Source: an uncultured Gammaproteobacteria bacterium (lineage in GTDB: Bacteria > Patescibacteriota > Patescibacteriia > Magasanikbacterales > GWA2-37-8). From it: a stretch of 64,000 nucleotides of DNA. Positions 32,016-34,953 of this stretch are shown here, piece after piece. Both the position numbers and the translations under genes were made by a program. Numbering within the stretch: the first letter of the stretch is position 1; each line of letters starts with the position of its first letter. The stretch spans positions 42,984-106,983 of the forward strand of contig CAYZGX010000001.1 in assembly GCA_964478235.1 (NCBI GenBank), in the 5' to 3' direction. The notes under the pieces were generated by a model, which searched no databases, was not told the DNA's origin, and worked only from the letters and a program-made list of their open reading frames with translations.

Positions 32016-33410
32016 CTACGAAGAGTACGACTGTTTGAGCGACACATCGCTCGTCACCATATCCGGCGCATCTGGAACAAGCTCAGTTTTCATCCGGTAC
32101 GCATCAAATTGGTAGCGCCCACCCAAGAAAACCATCAACTGTTCAGCATCGCGAAGACCGTTATAGAGACAAACACTCGCCCCCGGCGACGGTGTCATAT
32201 TAAAAATAATCCCCTCGCCAAGAATTTTACCTTCACCAAGCTGGAGCTCGCCAGTTGTCACATTCACGCGCTGAAGACGCATCCCACCATAACCAACTGC
32301 TCGAGTCAGATCAGCACCAGAAATAGTTGGTACGATTTTTTTAATTTGTGACACAAAGAAGTATTTTCCAATATACGGTAATTCGTAAAGAATATTTTTA
32401 GCGAGATACAAAAAACGTAATGGGTCGAACAAAATACCGGCAAAACTTTTCCAAGTGACCGGGCGCAAAAGCCCAGCTGACGTAAAGTAGGCACTCATTG
32501 TTTTTAGGTTGCGACTTTCAAGCACTGGGAAAAACCGAGCTGTCGGGCCCCAACGAGTTTTGTTTGGTACATTCACATCCGGGTCACCATGTGCCGCTGC
32601 AAACGGCAGTTTCGGCTCTTGCATCGTATACACTTTGCCACGAAGTAAATCCTTGGAAAAATAAAAAGTACCAGCAATCGGAATGAGCGAATATTCATGG
32701 CCATAGCCCATCGCTTTGGCAAAGCCAAGGCTGTAGGCATCAGTGTCCACCACAACGGTGGTTGCGGTGAGAGTGCCCGCCGATGTTTCCACCTCAAAAA
32801 TACCATCAGCATTTTTGGAAATACGCGTGACTGAGCGACCAAGAAATACATCCACGATTTTGTCGGTAACTTTTTTAGCTTGTGAGACAAACGACTCAGC
32901 GAGCGCACCAAAATTCACAGCATACCCTTCGTTATTGGCGAGCGCCAAAACTGGCTCATCGGGTGAGCGCCCACGCATCACCGCCGGCTCACACTCAGCA
33001 ATCTCCAGACCAGAGAGTTTAGTTATTTCCGGAAAAAGCGGTTTCAAATCAGCATATCTTTTTTCTAGCGTCACCACTTCTTTGGCGCCAACCGCCAAAA
33101 CCATTTTATGAACTTTAGTAACAATCCCCGCTCGCTCAGCTTCTGGTAGAGCCTCGGCATACCGAGCCACCATCATAGCCGCTGGTTTCACTTGGCGAAC
33201 TTTATCTATCGTGTAATTCGTTTCAATATCGCCAACATGAAGCGTCTGACTATTATTTTTAGCGTTAGAATTAACTTGGCCAAGAGTGGCATATTTTTCT
33301 ACCAACGCCACCGAAGAAACATTGGTGTAGCGAGCCAAGGTATACAAAAGAGCGGTGCCGCTCGCCCCGCCACCGATAACTAAAATGTCGTAGTGTTGTT
33401 GTTTAGACAT
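32016..33410 (-). CDS. FAD-dependent oxidoreductase, malate:quinone oxidoreductase (Mqo) family-like
   Basis: DILVIGGGASGTALL dinucleotide fold. QVNSNAKNNSQTLHVGDIETNYT aligns with the Mqo SSNxWNNAGTGH...ELNYT block. Confidence 0.6.
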   Translation of the reverse strand: MSKQQHYDILVIGGGASGTALLYTLARYTNVSSVALVEKYATLGQVNSNAKNNSQTLHVGDIETNYTIDKVRQVKPAAMMVARYAEALPEAERAGIVTKVHKMVLAVGAKEVVTLEKRYADLKPLFPEITKLSGLEIAECEPAVMRGRSPDEPVLALANNEGYAVNFGALAESFVSQAKKVTDKIVDVFLGRSVTRISKNADGIFEVETSAGTLTATTVVVDTDAYSLGFAKAMGYGHEYSLIPIAGTFYFSKDLLRGKVYTMQEPKLPFAAAHGDPDVNVPNKTRWGPTARFFPVLESRNLKTMSAYFTSAGLLRPVTWKSFAGILFDPLRFLYLAKNILYELPYIGKYFFVSQIKKIVPTISGADLTRAVGYGGMRLQRVNVTTGELQLGEGKILGEGIIFNMTPSPGASVCLYNGLRDAEQLMVFLGGRYQFDAYRMKTELVPDAPDMVTSDVSLKQSYSS

Positions 33411-33492
33411 AGTCTGCTAAGCATAGCGGGTTTAGCTGGGTTTGTCTATGAATACAATAATCCCCCTCATATGAGGGGGATTATTTATTTAG

Positions 33493-33580
33493 CAGGCGCG
33501 GCAGGAATCCCGCTCGCTCCGACTCGCGGCCTGGGCGCTATACTCAAGACCTCGCACTTGCTCGGTCTTTTCTCGCGCCC
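33493..33580 (-). pseudogene. Degenerate tRNA-like gene (88 nt) sharing acceptor stem and 3' end with adjacent tRNA-Trp
   Basis: RNA GGGCGCG...CGCGCCTG has the same 7-bp acceptor and 3' T-stem strand as tRNA-Trp, but the body is unrelated and the T-loop is broken. It is followed by its own palindromic terminator, TCCCCCTCATATGAGGGGGA. Confidence 0.5.
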
Positions 33581-33638
33581 TTCGATTCCATCATGTCTAC
33601 TTAAATAAACACCTCATTTGAGGTGTTTATTTATTTAG

Positions 33639-33709
33639 CAGGCGCGGCAGGAATCGAACCCACGCAGGTGGTTTTGGAGACCACCGTACTACCATTATAC
33701 GACGCGCCC
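33639..33709 (-). tRNA. tRNA-Trp (CCA)
   Basis: Acceptor GGGCGCG/CGCGCCT (G1-U wobble). Anticodon stem GTGGT/ACCAC with loop CTCCAAA. T-loop TTCGATT. Discriminator G. Terminator hairpin AACACCTCAtttGAGGTGTT downstream. Confidence 0.75.
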
Positions 33710-33717
33710 AGATTATA

Positions 33718-34488
33718 TTATTCTTTCACTTCATCGTTCGTCACCACCACCGCCGTCATAAAGGCGAAGAGGGCAAGTGTGTTACCGTATGGCACCACAA
33801 TACCCACCATAGAGAGCCCCATAACAAGCAGGGTCGGCAAAGTGATAGCAAACAGCCCCATAGTAAACAATTCTTTGAAATACCACGGTCGGCGAACGAG
33901 CTGACCCACCAGATATACCAGACTTGTAACCACGATAAGGAGCCACACCTTTATAACAAAAAAGGTGATAAAAAGCAAGAGAACAAAGCCGAAAGCCCAC
34001 AAAACAAGTGCGGTTGGACTAGTCAGCTGAAGCAAGTTGCTTGCTACCATTTCCGAAGTTGCTGTCCCGTTTGGAGCAGTGTCCCACAATCGTGTTTCTT
34101 CTCGATCAGTTGTAGCGTTATACACCGTCACACCTAAACGGGAAACAGTAATACTATTAGTATTCAAACGAGAGATAGTGTTAGTTGCCACGGTATCCAC
34201 ATAAACAGTCATACCATTGCGTTCAACTACAAACGGTTGTTCTAGCCCGGCAATAGATAAAGTACCGCTCGCCATTGTAGCTGAAAAAGTCGGCAAACCT
34301 TTTTCGGCCACCTGTCGCACTTCTTGAACAACTGGCATCGCCGCCAAACCGATCGGCAAAGCCACCACCACCGTCAGAAGAAAAATAAACGACGAAAAAT
34401 ACCGCCACGCGCCCACGGTAGACACGCGATTGGCTTTGAGCCAAGAGATATCGGATAGACTGTTTCTAAAAGCGATGAGAAAGCGCAT
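33718..34488 (-). CDS. Multi-TM membrane protein (hypothetical)
   Basis: 256 aa. N-terminal TM, central extracytoplasmic segment and four C-terminal TMs. Confidence 0.6.
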   Translation of the reverse strand: MRFLIAFRNSLSDISWLKANRVSTVGAWRYFSSFIFLLTVVVALPIGLAAMPVVQEVRQVAEKGLPTFSATMASGTLSIAGLEQPFVVERNGMTVYVDTVATNTISRLNTNSITVSRLGVTVYNATTDREETRLWDTAPNGTATSEMVASNLLQLTSPTALVLWAFGFVLLLFITFFVIKVWLLIVVTSLVYLVGQLVRRPWYFKELFTMGLFAITLPTLLVMGLSMVGIVVPYGNTLALFAFMTAVVVTNDEVKE

Positions 34489-34532
34489 AGATGGCCAAAA
34501 ACAAAGCGAGGCTAGCGCCTCGCTCAGGTTTG

Positions 34533-34688
34533 TTATTTCGTTTCTTTGTGAGGAGTGCTTTTCTTGCAGTGTTTGCAGAACTTAGCAATTTCCAAGCGGT
34601 TCTTCAATGTCTTCTTGTTCTTGCGAGTGAAGTAATTGAGGTGCTTGCAAACCGTGCACTCGAGTTTGACCATGTTATCTTGTGACAT
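34533..34688 (-). CDS. rpmG: 50S ribosomal protein L33
   Basis: Hand translation gives [51 protein letters not shown] (51 aa), the CxxC...CxxC L33 zinc ribbon. Absent from the ORF track because it is under 60 aa. Confidence 0.85.
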
Positions 34689-34756
34689 ACGGGTTGGTTA
34701 TAATAGTGGGATTAGTCTACCACACAGGGTGTAAATAATCAAGGGGGTAGCCATTA

Positions 34757-34788
34757 GAACGAAAAAACCCACTTTCAGAGGGTTTTTA
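34757..34788 (-). terminator. Terminator ending the tRNA Tyr-Thr-Thr cluster
   Basis: AAACCC-tctgaaagt-GGGTTT plus TTTT on the minus strand. Confidence 0.75.
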
Positions 34789-34789
34789 C

Positions 34790-34865
34790 TGGAGCCGATA
34801 AGCGGGATTGAACCGCTGACCTCGTCCTTACCATGGACGCGCTCTACCAACTGAGCTACATCGGC
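34790..34865 (-). tRNA. tRNA-Thr (GGU), CCA encoded
   Basis: GCCGATG acceptor. Anticodon loop ATGGTAA. T-loop TTCAATC. 3' ...GGCTCCA. Confidence 0.85.
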
Positions 34866-34880
34866 ATATGATAGCCTATG

Positions 34881-34953
34881 AGCCGCCTGTCGGATTTGAA
34901 CCGACGACCCACAGTTTACAAAACTGTTGCTCTACCAGCTGAGCTAAGGCGGC
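34881..34953 (-). tRNA. tRNA-Thr (UGU)
   Basis: GCCGCCT/AGGCGGC acceptor. Anticodon stem ACAGT/ACTGT with loop TTTGTAA. T-stem GTCGG/CCGAC. Confidence 0.85.

Follow-up and report, generated by a model that had tools for sequence, protein, structure and literature searches.

A repeated tRNA-Trp 3' end and terminator block with a GC-rich insert in a Parcubacteria-like genome

tRNA pseudogenes and tRNA-like small RNAs are known, such as tRNA-Other of Bacillus cereus. Genomic islands and prophages integrated in tRNA genes reportedly come with a displaced 3' fragment of the tRNA gene (attR), an observation said to go back to Reiter in 1989 and Williams in 2002. The Islander criteria describe an island by an intact tRNA gene with a cognate END fragment, a crossover sublocation (anticodon loop, T-loop or T/acceptor junction), a tyrosine integrase and a length of 2-200 kb, and crossover sites in the T-loop/T-stem account for 1836 of 3919 islands (PMC4383910). 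Here, we analyzed a tRNA-Trp(CCA) gene and the region following it in a 64-kb stretch of DNA (positions 42,984 to 106,983 of contig CAYZGX010000001.1, hereafter the window), in which a 29-nt string covering the 3' end of the tRNA and its trailer occurs twice. A previous reading made from the letters only (the sequence-only reading) had interpreted the copy with the lower coordinates, here called the left copy, as the end of a degenerate tandem twin of the tRNA, and had offered a decayed duplicate or the scar of integrase-mediated recombination as its origin.

We tentatively trace the left copy to a tandem duplication, specific to this lineage, of a host block of 62-67 nt, with GC-rich filler at the junction, and this origin seems quite possible. 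The locus has a block structure in which both copies are homologous to the terminator region of two sister species; the additional 146 bp are absent there, and the left copy carries no tRNA signal.

Compared with tRNA-integrated islands and prophages, the locus is alike in having a perfect direct repeat of the tRNA 3' end that starts in the T-loop and lies downstream of, and co-oriented with, the gene, and in having an empty site in a related species. It is unlike them in that only 117 bp separate the repeats, with neither integrase nor cargo and with no attP-bearing element detected, and in that the two-sided homology continues across the terminator as far as the -35 box of the promoter that follows. 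With regard to the Islander tests, we found an intact tRNA gene with a co-oriented END fragment, a boundary in the T-loop and an unoccupied site in one sister species (L133), but no tyrosine integrase and a repeat period of 146 bp instead of a length of 2-200 kb. Since the integrase, the size and attP fail to accompany the island-like geometry, the locus was not filed as an island. It looks like a displaced 3' tRNA-gene fragment, and just as much like a small duplicated segment under concerted evolution. Small tandem segmental duplications with gene conversion share with it the two co-oriented 62-67 nt copies of a host block, 146 nt apart, one sub-segment being perfectly homogenised and the remainder diverged, with compensation within the hairpins; the 84-nt foreign, structured filler sets it apart from plain slippage duplications, which have no filler. 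Like tRNA pseudogenes and tRNA-like small RNAs, the locus adjoins a real tRNA gene and has acceptor-strand sequence in common with tRNA-Trp, but the left copy lacks a cloverleaf and an anticodon arm, is not detected by tRNA models at the thresholds tried and is not conserved. Tandem intrinsic terminators offer a further parallel, with two related GC-stem hairpins in A/U-rich flanks between the tRNA unit and the next promoter; in this case, however, the doubling would have come about as a side effect of a duplication in which part of the tRNA was copied too, and any benefit is conjectural.

The repeated block and its terminators

The minus strand carries every relevant feature. In this sense, the DUF1189 gene is followed by tRNA-Trp, its trailer, terminator 1, the GC-rich insert, repeat copy 2, terminator 2, the promoter and the Mqo-like gene, with the following window coordinates:

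33718..34488, minus strand: upstream gene for a DUF1189 membrane protein of 256 amino acids (Pfam)
33638..33709, minus strand: functional tRNA-Trp(CCA) gene of 72 nt, CCA not encoded (ARAGORN; Rfam RF00005, 57.7 bits)
33627..33655, minus strand: 29-nt repeat copy 1 (2 exact matches versus 0 expected; repeat-family search)
33594..33655, minus strand: duplicated block copy 1, 62 nt (alignments)
33597..33638, minus strand: terminator hairpin 1, with the core ACACCTCA-AATG... at 33608-33627 extended by A-rich and U-rich arms (inverted-repeat search and fold)
33510..33593, minus strand: GC-rich (62%) insert of 84 nt (composition, structure and similarity searches)
33533..33580, minus strand: compound hairpin of the insert, 48 nt (pair probabilities >0.99)
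33492..33580, minus strand: the "twin" as drawn in the sequence-only reading, 89 nt, apparently not a tRNA (ARAGORN, Rfam and folding)
33481..33509, minus strand: 29-nt repeat copy 2, a displaced tRNA-Trp 3' fragment (exact match)
33443..33509, minus strand: duplicated block copy 2, 67 nt (alignments)
33456..33485, minus strand: terminator hairpin 2, with perfect 15-nt arms, the core TCCCCCTCATATGAGGGGGA at 33461-33480 and a U-rich tail after it (inverted-repeat search and terminator scan)
33420..33448, minus strand: promoter-like site TAGACA-17-TATGCT ahead of the Mqo-like gene (motif scan and alignments)
32016..33410, minus strand: downstream gene for an FAD-dependent oxidoreductase (Mqo/DAO family) of 464 amino acids (Pfam and homologues)

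The stop codon of the DUF1189 gene lies 8 nt from tRNA-Trp, and the genes flanking the locus are syntenic and housekeeping. The closest named homologues of the Mqo-like oxidoreductase were found in metagenome-assembled genomes of Magasanikbacteria, Kaiserbacteria and the "Patescibacteria group"; the source genome belongs to the Candidate Phyla Radiation (CPR)/Patescibacteria and is Parcubacteria-like.

A search allowing up to three mismatches located the 29-mer TTATTTATTTAGCAGGCGCGGCAGGAATC at exactly two sites in the window (33481-33509 and 33627-33655), in agreement with the sequence-only reading, and no match is expected by chance (0 of 100 shuffles with any match). The repeat period is 146 nt, with 117 bp between the copies. 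Copy 1, the right one, consists of tRNA positions 57-73, one more base and an 11-nt trailer (TAAATAAATAA); in other words, 18 nt of the 29-mer represent the tRNA-Trp 3' end, from T-loop position 57 to one base beyond the discriminator. This copy had been taken for the 3' end of a normal tRNA-Trp(CCA), and both the ARAGORN call (33709..33638, minus strand) and the Rfam score of 57.7 bits bear this out. The locus with the twin is base-for-base identical in four independent assemblies from this one species (Logan SRR12487046, ENA ERZ4216102, JGI 3300045377 and JGI 3300045378), and the arrangement is therefore not an assembly artefact.

The duplicated unit starts at T-loop position 57 (between TTC and GATT), takes in the rest of the tRNA together with its trailer and terminator, and reaches as far as the -35 hexamer of the Mqo promoter, TAGACA. 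In copy 1, the block ends in TTATTTAAGTAGACA, a duplicate of the -35 box region, and copy 2 contains the actual -35 box TAGACA of the promoter of the Mqo-like gene. Past the 29-mer, the tails of the two copies are identical at 27 of 39 positions (about 69%), and each copy shares 71-73% identity with the single terminator region of L133 and of L008, the second sister species.

Near-identical perfect palindromes had been reported to precede the two repeat copies. The one at 33461-33480 (TCCCCCTCATATGAGGGGGA) is indeed perfect, and AACACCTCATTTGAGGTGTT (33608-33627) is rather a perfect 8-bp stem with a 4-nt loop. Only the core CCTCA(W)ATGAGG is common to both, at 11 of 12 positions; TTATT...TAGACA is also found in both copies, and the outer stems differ (ACACC/GGTGT versus TCCCCC/GGGGGA) by compensatory changes. 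Moreover, in the sense of the tRNA each hairpin comes after its repeat copy, as a terminator, and does not precede it. When at most one mismatch was allowed, the core occurred in the window only in the two terminators and at one L10 leader site, so it is not a generic motif and the two terminators are specifically related. Terminator 2 was called by the terminator scan (33478..33462, minus strand). Terminator 1 forms an inverted repeat (I1) with 20-nt arms that are 90% complementary; it was not called by the scan, and its U-tract sits inside the extended 20-nt-arm stem.

Two related species were found via the flanking proteins, one represented by L133 (GCA_964442985.1) and the other by L008-L011. 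L133 and L008 share about 90% nucleotide identity with each other and about 82% each with the window, and are thus sisters to each other. The order in L133 is DUF1189, 5 nt, tRNA-Trp, one terminator, the same promoter and Mqo, with no twin, and its tRNA-Trp is identical to that of the window at 72 of 72 positions. A single tRNA-Trp and one terminator are also present at the orthologous position of L008. In L008-L011, an open reading frame (ORF) of 223 amino acids whose N-terminus carries an HTH_23 domain stands, together with a heterologous tRNA-Trp (AGGCGAG acceptor), in place of the ancestral tRNA-Trp. The promoter TAGACA-17-TATGCT of the Mqo-like gene has been kept in both sister species. 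The comparison with orthologous loci that had been proposed with the sequence-only reading has therefore yielded two relatives with a single tRNA-Trp each and no extra copy, and not two functional tRNAs. On this comparison, the tRNA-Trp of the window is the ancestral gene, and the single tRNA-Trp with one terminator in both sister species points to a lineage-specific twin, which is absent from the nearest relatives and not conserved.

Besides, several other contigs with the locus were inspected. The segment that differs in L008 (873-1690; also in L009-L011) is about 800 nt long, with the ORF at 960-1631 and the heterologous tRNA-Trp at 1610-1682, and the 3' end of the ORF overlaps the tRNA by 22 nt. 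It resembles a mobile cassette and might be a free-standing gene of homing-endonuclease-like type, the tRNA having been co-converted with it. As a homing endonuclease proper, the ORF was rejected: it has the HTH_23 domain only, no nuclease family was detected in it, and the rest of it is unassigned. Contig L007 (JGI 3300045395, 946-1089), from the same strain as the window, is identical to it at 950 of 950 positions upstream; after GATTCCT, the sequence of its tRNA-Trp changes to ...ACCGCCCCTGCA, which would leave a C4:C69 mismatch in the acceptor. Beyond the tRNA it continues into unrelated DNA with the start of a signal-peptide ORF (MKKLFSISSFVIGSFCLLGSVLQYAPASAAEIANL...), a fragment for which a protein search returned no homologue on record. 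Either L007 is a true recombinant at the T-loop/T-stem, or it was assembled as a chimera with a related species that has a compensated G4:C69 tRNA-Trp. In L002 (ENA ERZ4216102, 5079-6475), a contig 99.95% identical to the window with one gap relative to it, the Mqo-like gene is called as two ORFs of 279 and 202 amino acids, which reflects either a frameshift pseudogene in the population or a sequencing error. Contig L006 (Logan SRR12487035), which equals window positions 34940..33638, starts within a tRNA-Thr gene and stops at the last base of tRNA-Trp; this end may mark a branch of the assembly graph, i.e., sequence variation right after the tRNA in that sample, or may be a coincidence.

The left copy and the 84-nt insert

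The sequence-only reading had drawn the left copy as a tRNA-like RNA with the same acceptor as tRNA-Trp and a disrupted T-loop. A 7-bp acceptor-like pairing can in fact be drawn over the 89-nt stretch 33580..33492, with GGGCGCG at 33580..33574 (minus strand) as its 5' strand, and the disrupted T-arm-like element (GCGGG/AUU/CCUGC) is present as described. The "T-loop" of this element (GCGGG-AUU-CCUGC) has 3 nt, however, not the 7 nt (TTCRANY) on a 5-bp stem of a T-arm. The shared acceptor did not reach significance: a 7-mer able to pair with CGCGCCT is present in 18.5% of dinucleotide shuffles of the 84-nt insert, and in 6.3% of them it stands at a distance giving an RNA of 70-95 nt.

tRNA prediction likewise gave no support to a twin. 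ARAGORN did not call the left copy at its default, 80% or 70% thresholds, and at a 60% threshold with introns allowed it made spurious calls only, none of which matches the twin. The Rfam tRNA model (RF00005, E<=10) left the copy unmatched in searches of 381 nt and 101 nt, and no other Rfam family matched its region. A normal tRNA score for the left copy, which would have gone against the sequence-only reading, was given by neither relaxed ARAGORN nor Rfam. Local and gapped alignments of the 84-nt insert with tRNA-Trp plus flanks, on both strands, did not rise above shuffles; the strongest forward match was the 7-mer GGGCGCG (p = 0.36) and the strongest in reverse a 9-mer (p = 0.06), while gapped alignments gave p = 0.15-0.8. 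In neither orientation is the 64-nt interior of the "twin" significantly similar to tRNA-Trp.

Further examination of the folding indicated a different structure. The 5' GGGCGC pairs with an internal GCGCCC at a probability >0.99, closing a 48-nt compound hairpin, and the partner of the acceptor 3' strand is an internal AGGC(C)GCG, not the 5' end. A tRNA-like fold has an energy of -38.1 versus -42.1 for the minimum-free-energy fold, a penalty of 4 kcal/mol, and the ensemble probability of the tRNA-like acceptor pairs is <0.001. In the motif scan, no promoter-like site was found in front of the twin; copy 1 provides a duplicated -35 box with no -10. Judging from these predictions, the left copy is neither a tRNA nor a detectable pseudo-tRNA, and it appears to belong to no Rfam family. 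For annotation, this serves as a warning that an acceptor-like pairing together with a shared 3' end is insufficient to assign a tRNA or pseudo-tRNA.

The insert contains 62% GC, compared with about 46% for the genome, and its folding is more stable than that of shuffled sequences (z = -3.16; 0 of 200 shuffles fold as well); the twin region as a whole gave z = -2.7. In its compound hairpin, GGGCGC/GCGCCC closes a 6-bp stem AAGACC/GGUCUU, which is followed by a tandem G.A pair, a GC stem and an AAGU loop. At the junction with repeat copy 2, the insert ends in GAGCGAGCGG and is directly followed by GATTCC.

No relatives of the insert were detected in the window or in the fetched loci. Six-frame translation of the 117 bp between the repeats revealed no integrase or other ORF, and the coding potential of the region is unconvincing. 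Viral contigs scanned for exact patterns of the hairpin, the P/O junction and O+trailer gave zero matches, as did the same contigs scanned for the L007 junction and the L007-type tRNA end. JGI metagenome contigs also had zero matches to the P/O junction and the L007 junction, a weak result because this collection lacks even same-species contigs bearing the twin. A blastn search of the insert against phages and plasmids returned chance matches only (E 3-10). The 18-nt shared tRNA 3' end had at least 119 matches in genome contigs, nearly all of them chance matches in GC-rich coding DNA with no tRNA; among those listed, the only relevant one is L064, which is the same contig as L133. Contigs for the attR side or the empty site were also sought via the downstream 186-amino-acid protein, and those found were too short.

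Three other origins of the insert were considered and rejected. It contains GGAATCGAA, the reverse complement of the T-loop region of tRNA-Trp, and TATAGCGCCCAG, the reverse complement of the 5' leader/acceptor/D start, in collinear spacing; as an inverted degenerate copy of tRNA-Trp, however, it is not significant (9-mer p = 0.06, gapped alignments p = 0.15-0.4). A match with the 5' end of the L008-type tRNA-Trp (GCGAGTCGG) had p = 0.047 in one of several tests, which was lost after correction for multiple testing. A 29-nt target-site duplication flanking a 117-nt insertion was ruled out because the two terminators are specifically homologous.

Possible origins of the left copy

If the block was duplicated in tandem, the two copies would have come from unequal or illegitimate recombination, one breakpoint of which lay in the T-arm hairpin. 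The terminator stems would afterwards have diverged through compensatory changes, and the first 29 nt may have been kept identical, or recently made so, by short-tract gene conversion from the selected tRNA 3' end. The DUF1189-tRNA-Trp transcription unit would thereby have acquired two tandem terminators ahead of the Mqo promoter, and a read-through RNA would probably form two hairpins, one of 48 nt at its 5' side and one of 39 nt at its 3' side (AGGC(C)GCG with the acceptor 3' strand), and no cloverleaf. We saw no evidence of a present-day function beyond that of serial terminators. Of the decayed tandem duplicate suggested by the sequence-only reading, the tandem duplication has stood up, whereas what was copied of the tRNA is limited to its last 18 nt, together with the trailer, the terminator and the -35 box.

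Three facts have to be accommodated by every explanation: host-type homology over the whole block, identity confined to 29 nt, and a foreign-looking structured filler. Tandem duplication explains the first directly, requires an extra assumption for the second and leaves the third unexplained, and a number of observations weigh against it. Under uniform divergence, 29/29 identity followed by about 69% has P of about 2e-5, so an additional event (gene conversion) or selection must be assumed. The 11 nt of trailer within the identical stretch differ from both sister species. The two terminators are as diverged from each other as from their orthologues, which implies that the duplication is old or that one copy is foreign; if it is old, the persistence of 146 bp of junk in a small genome needs explaining. 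The filler is compositionally foreign and structured beyond chance, which simple duplication does not account for, and the left boundary falls in the T-loop, a classical crossover sublocation of integrases. With two lineages to compare, a gain in the lineage of the window and a loss in the ancestor of L008 and L133 require one event each. The feature is consistent both with local duplication plus gene conversion and with a decayed integrase att scar.

The latter is possible, if somewhat doubtful. An element with a tRNA-Trp 3' fragment in its attP would have integrated by a tyrosine-integrase crossover in the T-loop; the integration would have regenerated the tRNA (copy 1 plus the terminator of the element) and displaced the original 3' fragment (copy 2), and later deletions would have removed the integrase and cargo, leaving 117 bp with the 84-nt GC-rich piece as the last remnant of the element. 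Such a history would account in part for the identity confined to 29 nt and naturally for the foreign filler. An intact tRNA gene is followed downstream by a co-oriented 3' END fragment, as the Islander criteria describe (PMC4383910), the fragment begins at T-loop position 57, a known crossover sublocation, the boundaries of identity are sharp, the composition of the insert is foreign, and the sister species L133 has an empty site. The same tRNA locus has independently been rearranged in L008, with its HTH ORF and heterologous tRNA-Trp. In addition, L007 changes to a heterologous tRNA 3' end right after GATTCCT, and this switch and the repeat boundary of the window bracket positions 57-63, whose 7 nt would match an integrase overlap region in size; L007 may be chimeric, though, and its downstream ORF has no homologue on record. 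The geometry and the empty site thus agree with the att-like scar of the sequence-only reading, but the integrase is absent, only 117 bp lie between the repeats, which places the locus outside the Islander filters for integrase and length, and no attP was found. Neither a free element nor a second copy of the insert turned up in viral, metagenome, phage and plasmid collections, which are incomplete. A lineage-specific trailer lies within the identity block, and the homology of the arms runs about 35 nt past it, through a specifically related terminator and the -35 box, which attP and attB arms should not show and which looks more like duplicated host DNA than an attP/attB identity block.

It is very unlikely that the left copy is a decayed duplicate of the whole tRNA-Trp gene and terminator, with an interior later scrambled or replaced between surviving ends. 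Its 7-nt 5' end GGGCGCG and 18-nt 3' end are both identical to those of the tRNA (89 nt apart versus 72), and GCGGG/AUU/CCUGC resembles a T-arm with a 4-nt deletion in the loop; on the other hand, the interior has no significant similarity to tRNA-Trp (p = 0.2-0.8), 6-19% of shuffles contain the 7-mer match by chance, homology is lacking upstream of it, and decay would hardly spare 36 terminal positions perfectly yet erase 64 internal ones. We give equally little credence to a structured small RNA with a function of its own in which the tRNA-Trp 3' end is re-used; it would be transcribed by read-through past terminator 1 and would end at terminator 2. In one form it would be an acceptor-stem mimic, with a 39-nt 3' hairpin AGGC(C)GCG...CGCGCCU plus G73, and might be a substrate of RNase P/Z or the CCA-adding enzyme, or a decoy of tryptophanyl-tRNA synthetase (TrpRS). 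Folding better than that of shuffles (z = -2.7 for the twin, -3.2 for the insert), a GC-rich composition maintained in an AT-leaning genome and a strong terminator of its own argue for such an RNA; the 29/29 identity is compatible with purifying selection, and its persistence would be long if the terminator divergence reflects age. It is, however, missing in the two nearest relatives, lacks a promoter-like site of its own and matches no Rfam family, all available copies are identical and so carry no covariation, and selection on RNA structure would not demand identity of the AT-rich trailer. The chance that the 89-nt region is a functional, lineage-restricted small RNA whose 3' hairpin mimics the acceptor/T minihelix and trailer of tRNA-Trp seems slight; if this were the case, it might serve as a substrate or decoy in tRNA 3'-end processing, in CCA addition or for TrpRS, and selection, not gene conversion, would keep the 29-nt identity.

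The locus is of modest value in that it marks the tRNA-Trp gene as a hot spot of recombination within a small clade of CPR bacteria that are Parcubacteria-like. Three close species show three states, namely a single tRNA, a tRNA with a partial duplicate, and an HTH-ORF cassette with a heterologous tRNA-Trp, besides one possible strain-level recombinant (L007). To our knowledge, few tRNA-targeted integrative elements have been documented in CPR bacteria, and an integrase origin, if true, would make the locus a trace of such elements in their genomes. As an ordinary recombination scar, the locus matters little in itself.

A tmRNA-like RNA and its surroundings

A second tRNA-like oddity at 39794 had been mentioned alongside the twin as being of almost the same length. 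It is no kin of the left copy: its sequence is unrelated and resembles the tRNA-like ends of transfer-messenger RNA (tmRNA). Within 39794-39882 lies a 75-nt tRNA-like RNA (39805-39879, plus strand); it has a G3:U70 pair, ACCA is encoded at its end, and its T-arm reads GGGG/UUCGAUU/CCCC. The Rfam tmRNA model matched 39794-39882 with its two ends only, 320 model positions being reduced to 21 nt, and its score was 18.5 bits versus a gathering threshold of 47 (E = 1.8e-5). ARAGORN reported nothing for 39805-39879 by default and "tRNA-Gly(acc)" at a 70% threshold. A -10-like TATACT lies at 39781-39786, and a terminator follows at about 39887-39916. Candidate identities of this RNA are a tmRNA of which only the tRNA-like domain is left, an ssrA with an internal deletion, and a pseudo-tRNA.

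On the other strand, 39614..39435 (minus) starts with a strong sigma-70-type promoter (TTGACA-17-TATACT, 39614..39586) and a leader of about 150 nt, located upstream of a class II aminoacyl-tRNA synthetase gene (38033-39403). The leader holds GGGUGGAACC (39487..39478) and a terminator hairpin (39461..39435) and looks by eye like a T-box leader; a T-box had no Rfam match there at E<=10. Between this promoter and the tmRNA-like gene, the segment 39648-39752 (plus strand) begins with a promoter-like TTGACA-17-TAATAT (39648-39676), continues with short hairpins and ends with a GNRA-loop hairpin and T-run at about 39730-39752; it possibly represents a small RNA or a leader upstream of the tmRNA-like gene.

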